Origin: a virus
Taxonomy: Duplodnaviria; Heunggongvirae; Uroviricota; Caudoviricetes
Virus record (IMG/VR): IMGVR_UViG_2698536580_000004
Span: 1-26,180 of that record
Length of the DNA stretch: 26,180 nt
Strand: one strand, 5' to 3'
In this document: positions 5,779-17,020 of the stretch, piece by piece
How positions within the stretch are numbered: position 1 is the stretch's first letter
Layout: every line of letters starts with the position of its first letter
Program-made: the position numbers and the translations under genes
Notes under the pieces: generated by a model
The model's database searches: none
Seen by the model: the letters and a program-made list of their open reading frames with translations, nothing else
Told to the model about the DNA's origin: nothing

Positions 5779-6026
5779 AACAGGATTATTATTCGTATGA
5801 GGAATTGCTGATGGGGATGTTTAATATCGGTGATGAACTTTATGAAACGACTGATTTTGATGAACTGACGATGGAACATTTTGAAGTCAGTTTTGAGCAG
5901 TTTGCTAATATTGTCGATGCCTTATTGCCATTTACAGCTTTGGTTTGCTCTCCTTTAAGTGGAAGAAATTATCACGCATTTCTTAAAGATGGCATTGCCT
6001 TTATTAAGACTGAGGCCAGTGTGTAA
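5775..6026 (+). CDS. hypothetical small acidic protein
   Basis: 83-aa ORF, ATG overlaps the stop of the upstream ORF (ATGA); followed immediately by a terminator hairpin. Confidence 0.4.
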   Translation: MKQDYYSYEELLMGMFNIGDELYETTDFDELTMEHFEVSFEQFANIVDALLPFTALVCSPLSGRNYHAFLKDGIAFIKTEASV

Positions 6027-9181: not shown

Positions 9182-9324
9182 GCACACATTATGCACGGGC
9201 GTTTGTATATTAAATCCCGCTTTATTTCTGATGTGTTCGGCTAATAGCCTATATCCGAAATGAAGTGAATGCGGCGGTTAATTTTATTGGCGATACTGAA
9301 AACCGCAGCATGAACGGAGGCAAT
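9182..9324. promoter_or_regulatory. divergent late promoter region (terminase/portal leftward, capsid operon rightward)
   Basis: Only sizeable non-coding gap between divergent late operons; AT-rich. No canonical TGT-N12-ACA Ogr box found by eye. Confidence 0.4.
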
Positions 9325-11237: not shown

Positions 11238-11936
11238 ATGCAACTGTCACCGGCACAGCGCCACAGCGCACGAATTGAAGCGGAGCGGTTACTGCGACAG
11301 CAGCAGTCTCTGGACACGGAAACCAGCCTGCATATTCAGATTGTCGCGCTGGAGAAAGATGTCGTCGCAGCTGCAGCGATTGAAAGCCGCGCTGAGCGCA
11401 TGGAGTTTAAGCGTGATGTGCTGTTACCGCGCTGGATGCCGACCGCGCAATCCTGGCTGGAAGGTGACAGTGTGCAACAGAATCCTGTTTTTGCCTGGTG
11501 TGTCGTCTGGCTGTTTGATACAGGCCAGTTTGACCAGGCGCTGGACTGGGCGGATGTGGCAATCCAGCGGGGGCAGGAAACCCCGGCCGCGTTCGGCAGT
11601 ACGTTCCCGGTGTTTGTGGCGGATACGGTGTTGTCCTGGGCGGAAGCGGAAGCCGTACAGGGGCATGAAGTGGAGCCGTACTTCAGCCGTACGCTGGAAA
11701 ACGTGACGCAGCACTGGAATGTGTATGAGGTCATTAAGGCCAAATACCTGAAGTTTGCCGGTCTGCACCTGCTACGCGATGAAAACGGAGAGCCACGCGC
11801 AGCGGCAACGGAAGACAGGGAAGTATTGCTCCGGGCTAAGGAACTGCTGGAGCAGGCGAAGGGATTCGACCCTAAATGTGGTGTCGGCACGATGTTGCAG
11901 CGTATTGCTGCGCGTCTGCGGGCGCTGAAAAAATAG
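11238..11936 (+). CDS. M: terminase small (endonuclease) subunit (P2 gpM-like)
   Basis: 232 aa; position after the capsid gene and size match P2 gpM. Confidence 0.7.
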   Translation: MQLSPAQRHSARIEAERLLRQQQSLDTETSLHIQIVALEKDVVAAAAIESRAERMEFKRDVLLPRWMPTAQSWLEGDSVQQNPVFAWCVVWLFDTGQFDQALDWADVAIQRGQETPAAFGSTFPVFVADTVLSWAEAEAVQGHEVEPYFSRTLENVTQHWNVYEVIKAKYLKFAGLHLLRDENGEPRAAATEDREVLLRAKELLEQAKGFDPKCGVGTMLQRIAARLRALKK

Positions 11937-11952
11937 TCTACGGGAGTTTGAT

Positions 11953-12144
11953 ATGTCGTTTAAGCATGAGTTAGGCCAGGTTGTTGAAGTTTCCATTAGC
12001 GGCGAAGAGGGGCATATCAAAGCCCGTGCGGAGTACACCAACAGCTGCAATCAGTATCTGATCCACTATCAGACTGCTGACGGTCGCGCATCTGATGCGT
12101 GGTTTGAAGAAGGTGAGATTCAGGCCGCAAAACGCGGCGAGTAA
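11953..12144 (+). CDS. hypothetical 63-aa protein
   Basis: Short ORF with a GGGAG SD inserted between the small terminase and head completion genes; no motif recognised. Confidence 0.4.
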   Translation: MSFKHELGQVVEVSISGEEGHIKARAEYTNSCNQYLIHYQTADGRASDAWFEEGEIQAAKRGE

Positions 12145-12157
12145 GACTACCGACCCG

Positions 12158-12224
12158 AAAGCGGGCGCGGTGGAGGGGATCGCATAAGCGTATCGCCCGT
12201 GGAAACCGGCCAGCCCGCTTTTTT
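12158..12224 (+). terminator. structured element / possible attenuator or terminator before head completion gene
   Basis: GCGGGC (12161-12166) pairs with GCCCGC (12213-12218), followed by TTTTTT (12219-12224); the ~46-nt intervening GC-rich loop may fold further. Confidence 0.35.
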
Positions 12225-12237
12225 CCGGAGAAACAGG

Positions 12238-12690
12238 ATGTTCAGCGGAACTTCAATTGATTTTGACGATGCCACTCTGACGAATGATGGCTTCTGGCCT
12301 GACCTGAGCGTGAAGGATTTTCAGTCCCAGCGCACCATTCCGGCCGATATTGATGTGGCCACCATCCGCCAGGCACTGCTGACTGCAGCCGGCGAAATCA
12401 ATGATGATCTGGTCAGTGTGGCGGCAAGGTATCGCAATGCTGGCCATGAGCGCGCGGCGGACGTTCCGGGCGTGGAAATTGACGGCGAAAATCTGTTGTG
12501 CGCCCGTTATCGCAAAGCGGTATATGCACGTGCCAAAGCTGATTTGATGGGCGAATTTGCGTCTGTTGGTCGCCGTGAGAGCCATCCGGGGCAGGAAAGT
12601 GACGAAACCCGCTCCAGCCTGATTGCAGAGTCCACACTGGCAGTACGCCGCATCAAAGGGCTGAAACGCATTACGGTGGCCATGATATGA
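12238..12690 (+). CDS. L: head completion/stabilisation protein (P2 gpL-like)
   Basis: Track ORF starts at GTG 12199; ATG at 12238 (MFSGTSIDF) follows a GGAGAAACAGG SD; ~150 aa; position after small terminase. Confidence 0.6.
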   Translation: MFSGTSIDFDDATLTNDGFWPDLSVKDFQSQRTIPADIDVATIRQALLTAAGEINDDLVSVAARYRNAGHERAADVPGVEIDGENLLCARYRKAVYARAKADLMGEFASVGRRESHPGQESDETRSSLIAESTLAVRRIKGLKRITVAMI

Positions 12691-16829: not shown

Positions 16830-17020
16830 CAAAACGAGTCCGGGCAATTGAACAGAACGGACTCGAACAGTATTTAATTTTACGTCGCCATTATTTACCA
16901 CACGGTCAGGATTCCGTGGATGATATTTCCGCTGCCATCTGGCTGGATAATCGCCACTGGGAAAATATGCGAATAGCGGTTGCTAACGGAATCAGCACTG
17001 CATTTAAAGGCACGGAATGA
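16572..17020 (+). CDS. tail assembly chaperone, -1 frameshift-extended form (shift at 16820-16826)
   Basis: After a -1 slip on A_AAA_AAC the frame from 16826 is open for 64 codons (LTKRVRAIEQNG...AFKGTE) and stops at TGA 17018-17020, overlapping the tape measure ATG 17017. Confidence 0.5.
16820..16826 (+). other. candidate -1 programmed ribosomal frameshift slippery heptamer A_AAA_AAC
   Basis: X_XXY_YYZ heptamer directly before the chaperone stop codon; the -1 frame is open to the tape measure start. Confidence 0.5.

Follow-up and report, generated by a model that had tools for sequence, protein, structure and literature searches.

A conserved structured RNA with a kink-turn signature at the head/neck boundary of the late gene array in Peduoviridae

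Introduction

Within a 26,180-nucleotide (nt) stretch of prophage DNA (IMG/VR record IMGVR_UViG_2698536580_000004, positions 1 to 26,180; hereafter the window), the genes for the small terminase subunit (gpM) and the head completion protein (gpL) are separated by a 63-amino-acid (aa) open reading frame (ORF63) and by a GC-rich element that directly precedes the gpL ribosome-binding site. This M-L element is a genuine structured RNA of the plus strand, whose three-helix structure is conserved among the relatives of the prophage. It is ancestral, single-copy and cis-acting, and it occurs independently of ORF63. The internal loop of its upper part matches the consensus of a kink-turn (k-turn), so that a kinked conformation is predicted. 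Tentatively, the element may act as a leaky terminator between the head genes and the neck and tail genes.

Secondary structure of the M-L element

The element occupies positions 12145-12232 of the plus strand and consists of a single-stranded 5' flank followed by a rod of about 75 nt, which is built from three helices termed P1, P2 and P3 (Table 1). Four sets of copies were used: 45 distinct sequences aligned with MAFFT, 93 sequences aligned to a covariance model (CM), 102 distinct copies for the analysis of the upstream gene slot and 104 copies for spacing and Shine-Dalgarno (SD) accessibility. An earlier reading of the letters alone (the sequence-only reading) had described the strands GCGGGC (12161-12166) and GCCCGC (12213-12218) followed by TTTTTT (12219-12224) just before the gpL SD, and all of these coordinates, 64 nt in total, match by direct reading. 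The "GC-rich loop" that it placed between the two strands proved to be two further helices, P2 and P3, which are split by an invariant k-turn-like internal loop.

At the base of the rod, A12158-A12159 can lengthen P1 through A-U pairs with the U tract. The closing, upper pair of P2 makes use of all four Watson-Crick combinations (UA 49, CG 15, AU 12, GC 12, besides UG 4), while P3 exhibits a conserved bulged G and a tip that varies by clade (CGC/GCG, ACAC/GUGU, GCAC/GUGC, ACCC/GGGU). The mean minimum free energy (MFE) of the hairpin among the relatives is -29.9 kcal/mol. The first 8 nt of the flank, GACUACCG, are near-invariant, with C3, U4, C7 and G8 found in 93/93 sequences and G1 and C6 in 92/93. 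A covarying or pairing partner of the flank was not detected by alignment and accessibility tests on 93-104 copies. The spacing on both sides is tight: in 98 of 102 distinct copies, only 0-6 nt separate the end of the upstream stop codon from G1 of the flank, P1 begins 16-21 nt past this stop codon, and the 3' end of P2 is followed by the gpL AUG at a distance of 24-36 nt, most often 26 or 29 (104 copies). A run of at least four U residues lies within 10 nt of P1 in 78 of the 93 relatives, and the remainder carry interrupted U-rich tracts.

Table 1. Positions of the M-L element, its parts and the adjoining genes in the window (AF2, AlphaFold2; pLDDT, predicted local distance difference test; C and NC helix, canonical and non-canonical helix of a k-turn).
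Feature	Position	Strand	Basis
gpM, small terminase subunit, 232 aa	11238..11936	+	Pfam PF05944, E 6e-39; phrog_74, E 1e-70
ORF63 SD, GGGAG, 6 nt 5' of ATG	11942..11946	+	direct reading
ORF63, optional accessory gene, predicted 5-stranded SH3-like barrel	11953..12144	+	phrog_8618, E 1.2e-35; AF2 pLDDT 86
5' single-stranded flank GACUACCGACCCGAA, 15 nt	12145..12159	+	starts 0 nt past ORF63 TAA
P1 5' strand, AGCGGGC	12160..12166	+	pairs with 12213-12219; 99.7% paired; 4/7 pairs compensatory (GC/AU, CG/UA)
P2 5' strand, CGGU, NC helix of k-turn	12168..12171	+	pairs with 12205-12208
k-turn-like loop, non-bulged strand G(3n) G(2n) A(1n)	12172..12174	+	1n A 93/93; 2n G 88, A 5; 3n G 75, U 18
P3 hairpin, GGGGAUCGC-AUAA-GCG(U)AUC(G)CCC, C helix of k-turn	12175..12198	+	95.7% and 87.9% paired; 6/8 pairs compensatory
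k-turn-like loop, bulged strand G U G (L1-L3), G(1b) A(2b) A(3b)	12199..12204	+	L3 G, 1b G, 2b A in 93/93; L2 U 85/93; no gaps
P2 3' strand, ACCG	12205..12208	+	alignments
Lower internal loop, asymmetric 1 x 4, G(N)C(A/U) opposite G12167	12209..12212	+	columns 75-78: G 85, U/C/A, C 85, A 77
P1 3' strand, GCCCGCU	12213..12219	+	alignments
U tract, UUUUUU, directly 3' of P1	12219..12224	+	direct reading
gpL SD, GGAG	12227..12230	+	direct reading
gpL, head completion protein/head-tail adaptor Ad1, 150 aa from ATG 12238	12238..12690	+	Pfam PF05926, E 1.3e-46; phrog_71

Evidence for a conserved RNA structure

In the MAFFT alignment, onto which the structure was drawn by hand, 96.4% of the cells at paired positions can pair, compensatory changes are seen in 10 of the 20 pairs and none of 500 shuffles reaches the score, while only 36-45% of cells pair in slid controls. 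A CM (R1) built from this alignment finds one copy in the window (12145-12232, plus strand, 84.8 bits, E 1e-20), the runner-up scoring 8.9 bits. Among the 93 sequences aligned with this model, 96.8% of the cells are paired as compared to 34-47% in slid controls, double changes occur in 12 of 20 pairs (188 cells), and the covariation score is again reached by 0/500 shuffles. The strand can be read from two observations: the model scores 77-103 bits on the plus strand and at most 7 bits on the minus strand, and 89 cells hold G.U wobbles on the plus strand, which correspond to C.A on the opposite strand. Both indicate that selection acts on the RNA of the coding strand and not on duplex DNA. A small structured RNA, one of the options raised by the sequence-only reading, is hence borne out by covariation over 93 sequences and by occurrence in more than 100 contigs. 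The folding of 12150-12230, which that reading had proposed as a structure check, is uninformative when taken alone: the MFE of the single plus-strand sequence is -36.8 kcal/mol as compared to -31.7 +/- 3.3 kcal/mol for shuffled sequences (z -1.56; 16 of 200 shuffles are as good), and z is -1.22 for the minus strand.

The number of distinct copies was raised to more than 100 with a strict sequence pattern that includes the flank and was applied to IMG/VR viral contigs independently of protein homology. A looser pattern, GCGCGGNNGARGN{18,45}GGANNCCG, yielded only chance matches in GC-rich genomes when run on genome contigs. Rfam 15 contains no family that matches the element (cmscan at E<=10 over 11700-12500, both strands), three weak chance hits lying elsewhere. 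A dispersed bacterial repeat of the REP, BIME or ERIC type was rejected, as the window holds a single copy and only 16 of 5426 complete E. coli genomes contain the element, one copy each and always in this type of prophage. All of these E. coli copies sit under gpM and head-completion annotations.

Several further interactions were considered and discarded. A pseudoknot between G1-A2-C3 of the flank and the G-N-C of the lower internal loop (J loop) would need column 2 to pair with column 76, and the two are compatible in 68 sequences and incompatible in 25. Pairing of the flank with the gpL SD ("P0"), as suggested by the single-sequence MFE structure, is inconsistent over 104 sequences and has no covariation support. 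A scan for tertiary pairs by mutual information with average product correction returned the pairs of P1-P3 only, together with clade and alignment artefacts (such as 13/61 and 14/62, which are in parallel register). The reverse complement of the flank (window 12145-12153) reads GCGGTAGTC, within which CGGTAG is the core of the RfaH ops/JUMPstart element. An ops/JUMPstart element was rejected, since the core GGCGGTAG is required on the non-template strand while the late operon has the ops-like core on its template strand; the resemblance is probably coincidental.

A kink-turn signature in the upper internal loop

Both the definition of k-turns and the rules for their folding are available from earlier work (PMC8191799, PMC4382518), and the internal loop between P2 and P3 agrees with this consensus. 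A bulge of exactly 3 nt, located beside the C helix P3, is found in 93/93 sequences (columns 65-67, without length variation). The pair 1b.1n is G.A in all 93 sequences and 2b.2n is A.G in 88 and A.A in five, the latter having a natural precedent in Kt-23 of T. solenopsae. The pair -1b:-1n is C:G in 85 sequences and U:G in eight, and the -2 pair is C:G in 92. More variation is seen at 3b:3n (A:G 54, U:G 20, U:U 8, C:U 5, A:U 5, G:G 1), where 88 of 93 sequences are non-Watson-Crick. According to the published rule, a G at 3n or a C at 3b in a pair that is not Watson-Crick leads to k-turn folding in metal ions (PMC8191799), and by such rules 80 of the 93 copies should fold in metal ions alone.

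The window copy shares the A:G pair at 3b:3n with H. marismortui Kt-7, drum and RAGATH-18 (PMC8191799), as well as the 3-nt bulge, the G.A and A.G pairs and the C:G pair at -1b:-1n. It differs from them in its location, a phage mRNA in which it forms part of a terminator-like hairpin, and in the invariant G at L3, which is unusual at that position. In general, folding of a k-turn introduces a bend of about 50 degrees into the helix (PMC5061560), and k-turns are often protein-binding sites (PMC5061560, PMC4316175).

Genomic setting and distribution

The prophage of the window belongs to the genus Evevirus of the Peduoviridae and shows 92-98% identity to Escherichia phage ESSI2_ev239, whose gpM is 98.7% identical to that of the window. 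From position 9265 to the end of the window, about 17 kb, all genes form a single co-directional array on the plus strand (scaffold, major capsid, gpM, ORF63, gpL, tail terminator, tail completion, sheath, tube, lysis genes, tail genes), which is tightly packed, with most adjacent genes overlapping. The 93 nt from 12145 to 12237 that contain the element fall exactly at the head/neck boundary and, besides 16830-17016, are the sole sizeable non-coding gap of the late array. This other gap lies just 5' of the tape-measure gene and may be a tail-chaperone frameshift region. Late promoter sites of the P2 type (TGT-N12-ACA) are not enriched and, like sigma-70-like sites, were not found near the element.

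More than 100 distinct copies are present in Peduoviridae that resemble ESSI-2 or Evevirus. In Cronobacter phage ESSI-2, ORF63 is missing and the element follows gpM directly. Further copies were identified in Yersinia phage YenM_324, Salmonella phage SI7, the Quadragintavirus phages ev040 and ev129 and dozens of IMG/VR contigs, among which gpM can be merely 50-57% identical to the window protein. As the element is retained at this distance, the non-coding sequence is better conserved than the proteins that flank it. Its presence without ORF63 in ESSI-2, YenM_324, SI7 and most IMG/VR contigs indicates that the element is ancestral. The sequence-only reading had regarded both ORF63 and the element as insertions, which holds for ORF63 and not for the element.

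Cargo on the 3' side of the element was seen in a single case, in which a 71-aa, strongly hydrophobic (membrane) ORF (L376, reverse strand, 1658-1873) is located between an element with a U8 tract and gpL. With the R1 model, phiO18P, K139, phi3 and P2 go undetected; their spacers are structured but different. Structured M-L spacers of 97-172 nt were noted in phiO18P (L154 1329-1500), Pseudomonas phi3 (L400 1098-1194) and K139 (L398 1095-1200); phi3 and phiO18P retain a flank resembling GACUACC or GACUCUCC together with a GC-rich P1.

ORF63, an optional gene upstream of the element

The 63-aa ORF with its GGGAG SD was correctly located by the sequence-only reading and represents a genuine conserved protein family and gene. 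Its ATG begins 16 nt past gpM (stop codon TAG, 11934-11936) and its own stop codon is TAA (12142-12144). The homology search suggested by that reading gave a full-length match to PHROG 8618 (residues 1-60 of the 61-position profile, E 1.2e-35); two related PHROGs also match, and function is not annotated for any of the three. Homologues form 54 clusters, all from Enterobacterales, with 47-97% identity, and none contains a Pfam domain. Searches of Pfam, NCBIfam, PADLOC and PDB sequences with ORF63 returned nothing significant.

An AlphaFold model based on 40 homologues (pLDDT 86) predicts a five-stranded SH3-like barrel. The best match among solved structures is 5ycq, a Lon specificity factor of the HspQ/YccV type (query-normalised template-modelling score TMq 0.83, Foldseek E 1.3e-3, root-mean-square deviation 1.2 A across 58 columns, sequence identity 17%), followed by PWWP, KOW and CAP-Gly barrels. 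The predicted fold is thus like that of HspQ/YccV barrels, without a link between the sequence families. Since the SH3-like barrel is a generic fold, no function can be transferred to ORF63.

Among the 102 distinct copies, gpM lies directly 5' of the element in about 80% and an ORF63 gene in about 19%. Members of the ORF63 family fill this slot in at least five clades of the element, including that of ESSI2_ev040. In ESSI2_ev040 (L151 1304-1501) and ev015, the homologue is annotated as "L33", and the searches made with it detected no relation to ribosomal protein L33. Other cargo consists of a His-rich repeat ORF (ESSI2_ev129, L336) and an unrelated 83-aa ORF (L075). The protein in the slot of ESSI2_ev129 (L156 1246-1482) and L336 comprises 78-82 aa with histidine-rich repeats of the HTHTVGAHSHSLGGA type and is annotated as "tail fiber protein", although an accessory role, as a metal-binding or low-complexity protein, may apply.

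ORF63 homologues also recur beside small-terminase genes in a second, unrelated phage architecture. Contigs of about 40 kb and lambdoid type (L010-L070, e.g., L045 2501-2677, L011, L024, L029, L064) carry them in the interval from the Rz/Rz1 lysis genes to a Nu1-like gene for the small terminase, with a hairpin plus T run on both sides and with premature stops in L058, L059, L061, L062 and L070. Small, patchily distributed and placed between conserved late genes, ORF63 and its homologues resemble morons, the hairpin-plus-T brackets of the lambdoid-type copies being typical of such genes. In the window, by contrast, there is no room for a promoter or terminator of its own, and the ancestral element is borrowed as the downstream hairpin; no promoter-like site was found in the 16-nt gap between gpM and ORF63. 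ORF63 is an accessory gene of the late operon. The variable cargo slot in which it resides extends from the stop codon of the small terminase gene to the conserved RNA element and is a place where this phage group carries small accessory genes.

The annotated start of gpL

The RefSeq entry of ESSI2_ev239 starts the head-tail adaptor at the GTG of the k-turn bulge, giving a protein of 163 aa (window 12199-12237; L001 4000-4038). This GUG was rejected as the start of gpL: it sits inside a helix junction and lacks an SD, its frame to the AUG is kept in 60 of 104 copies, and it is GCG in seven copies. The ATG at 12238 is favored instead, because it is preceded by the GGAG SD, aligns with the gpL start of ESSI-2, and the GTG frame is kept in just those 60 relatives. 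The RefSeq start, which lies inside the k-turn, is probably wrong and is corrected here.

M-L spacers of other Peduoviridae

In P2 (NC_001895), positions 5900 and 6000 mark the end of M and the start of L. The statement of the sequence-only reading that M is directly followed by L in P2 is therefore incorrect, as the 99-nt spacer folds into a long hairpin of its own (L397 2902-3000, corresponding to P2 5901-5999). An almost invariant hairpin, GGGCGG-C-ACGCCGGU...ACCGGCGU-CCA-CCGCCC, is shared by the M-L spacers of P2, 186, SEN1, BIS20, Midge and relatives (L397, L454-L459), in addition to a small upstream hairpin with one compensatory change. The records give no annotation or function for the P2/186-type hairpin, and none was found in the searchable literature. 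It resembles the element in its slot, its length of about 90-100 nt, its very high conservation and a long GC-rich hairpin that ends about 20 nt before the gpL AUG; it differs in sequence and loops (a C opposite CCA and no tandem G.A) and does not possess the GACUACCG flank.

HP1-like phages (L155 1396-1489; L401-L453) place the M-L hairpin inside the gpM frame. Their gpM exhibits a C-terminal extension of about 50 aa, and the sequence encoding it includes a GC-rich, long-range hairpin GGCGGGC...GCCCGCC in an AT-rich genome. L406 and L410 carry the compensatory variant GGCAGGC/GCCTGCC, and in F108-like loci (L449, L450) the two hairpin arms are swapped and different residues are encoded. This suggests that an RNA structure has been selected within the coding region. 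The hairpin was rejected as a homologue of the k-turn, since members of the HP1 clade do not conserve its G.A positions.

Possible functions of the element

The reading toward which we lean, with somewhat less than even confidence, is that the element stabilises 3' ends and acts as a leaky intrinsic terminator where the head genes meet the neck-tail genes, with an upper k-turn module as part of it. In this model, P1 and the U tract would constitute a leaky Rho-independent terminator in E. coli, at which a fraction of the late transcripts would end at about 12220-12224. The message for scaffold, capsid, terminase and ORF63 would then finish in a very stable hairpin that caps its 3' end, the adaptor, neck and tail genes would be carried by read-through transcripts, and partial termination would determine the head:tail expression ratio. 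The kinked arm (P2-Kt-P3), being folded beforehand, could nucleate fast folding of P1 and/or dock a factor that tunes termination. Termination, 3'-end stabilisation and any binding of a factor are inferred. A terminator or attenuator had already been suggested by the sequence-only reading on account of the stem and the U run just before the gpL SD, and it remains the leading reading, although the hairpin turned out to be atypical for a terminator.

In support of termination, the GC-rich strands of P1 (GCGGGC/GCCCGC) are followed at once by U6 (12219-12224). In common with intrinsic terminators of phage late operons, the element has a GC-rich basal helix and a U tract, an intercistronic boundary position and an A-rich 5' shoulder able to pair with the U tract. 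Given the size of the ribosome footprint, P1 at 16-21 nt past the stop codon lies outside the reach of a terminating ribosome, which should therefore not melt it. Moreover, the tolerance of cargo both 5' (ORF63, the His-repeat ORF, the 83-aa ORF) and 3' (L376) of the element argues for generic punctuation rather than for an operator dedicated to gpL.

Several observations weigh against this reading. A simple consensus terminator scan does not call the element, because the "loop" of P1 measures 46 nt and is itself structured, whereas the standard of the scan is 3-8 nt. Intrinsic terminators also differ from the element in lacking its 46-nt, two-helix arm with a k-turn-type loop and its conserved 5' flank, and a plain terminator leaves the k-turn, the invariant L3 G and the invariant flank unexplained. 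About 15 of the 93 relatives have weak or interrupted U tracts, and the U tract might alternatively act as an S1-type translational enhancer for gpL. Essential genes, including those for the abundant sheath and tube proteins, follow downstream without a recognisable promoter; hence the element cannot be the end of the operon and any termination would need to be inefficient. Finally, the large hairpin at the M-L site of 186 and other Eganvirus phages, and the one within the gpM frame of HP1, have no usable U tract. The distant relatives thus keep the hairpin and lack the U tract, suggesting that the ancestral role of the M-L hairpin was not termination. A structured M-L junction is found family-wide, and what its members have in common may be a role in controlling gpL translation or in processing the RNA.

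A broader possibility, which we consider open to doubt, is that the M-L element represents a hitherto undescribed Peduoviridae family of structured RNAs in which the k-turn arm and the invariant flank sense or dock a partner, be it a phage protein, a host factor or a terminating ribosome. The hairpin would then be a regulated switch, acting as a conditional terminator, an antiterminator or a processing site, that times or balances head versus tail expression; the different hairpins of P2/186 and HP1 at this site would be analogous solutions to the same problem. Among the alternatives to termination, control or coupling of translation of the downstream cistron, with the U tract as an S1 enhancer or standby site, comes first, and appears rather unlikely to us. 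In its coupling version, terminating ribosomes would be handed across the kinked hairpin, whose base lies 14-17 nt before the gpL AUG, to the next start. The tight spacings on both sides would fit such a device (stop codon 0-6 nt before the flank in 98/102; 24-36 nt from the 3' end of P2 to the AUG), as would an SD that immediately follows the U tract in nearly all copies, the entry of gpM translation into the element in L092 and L093, and the retention of a large hairpin directly 5' of the gpL ribosome-binding site in 186, HP1 and P2 despite the missing U tract. The SD, however, is not consistently sequestered (mean unpaired probability 0.44), pairing between flank and SD averages 2.35 of 10 nt (range 0-5.6) without covariation, and in L376 another ORF separates the element from gpL. 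With ORF63 in place of gpM upstream and the L376 ORF downstream, no specific gene pair is required.

Somewhat less probable still is a site of endonucleolytic processing or mRNA stability that separates head and tail messages without a role in termination, either of the RNase III type or with RNase E entry at the flank. The irregular, intercistronic rod of about 22-25 bp with conserved internal loops resembles RNase III sites of phages T7 and lambda, conservation of the hairpin extends to relatives with no U tract, and a conserved single-stranded flank precedes the stable hairpin. RNase E, however, prefers AU-rich sites and the flank is C-rich, while the bend of about 50 degrees in a folded k-turn (PMC5061560) would make a poor RNase III substrate. 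We regard as improbable that the element chiefly binds a protein, be it a phage structural protein in an autogenous circuit or a host RNA chaperone such as ProQ or Hfq, at a site made up of the k-turn, the invariant G that is flipped out and the invariant flank, or that it gives rise to a trans-acting regulatory RNA derived from the 3' untranslated region, the terminated fragment being the small RNA. The flank, the L3 G, G24 and the J loop are more invariant than pairing requires, and a terminator hairpin with a U tail and a 5' single strand is the architecture of Hfq and ProQ ligands. On the other hand, neither a partner nor target complementarity was found, enterobacteria are not known to possess L7Ae-family proteins, and for most copies (3b:3n A:G, U:G or C:U) Mg2+ alone is predicted to suffice for folding, so that no protein would be required. 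That k-turns commonly serve as protein sites (PMC5061560, PMC4316175) is nevertheless in favor of a bound partner. Least of all do we expect an element that acts at the DNA level, such as a recombination boundary, an insertion hot spot or a protein-binding palindrome. Unrelated cargo ORFs do sit exactly at the 5' edge in different clades, and one at the 3' edge, but G.U is tolerated on the plus strand only (89 cells), the CM score is strand-specific, covariation keeps the pairing and not the sequence, and conserved asymmetric loops would be meaningless in duplex DNA.

Significance

Accounts of late gene control in the P2 family centre almost exclusively on four Ogr-type promoters, and RNA-level punctuation between head and neck or tail genes was not found in the searchable literature. 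Likewise, neither Rfam nor this literature yielded a description of the M-L element, although the catalogue of Fremin (2023), of which only part was accessible and which comprises more than 10,000 candidate structured RNAs of phages, including 1241 that resemble terminators, may include it. The element adds a structured RNA that is more conserved than the neighboring proteins and carries a k-turn signature, at a site where the head:tail ratio could be set. Should it be a true leaky or regulated terminator, it would explain how differing protein doses arise from a single 17-kb array and would provide a compact, portable attenuator part. If its function is a different one, the element would represent a new class of cis-regulatory RNA with more than 100 natural variants.

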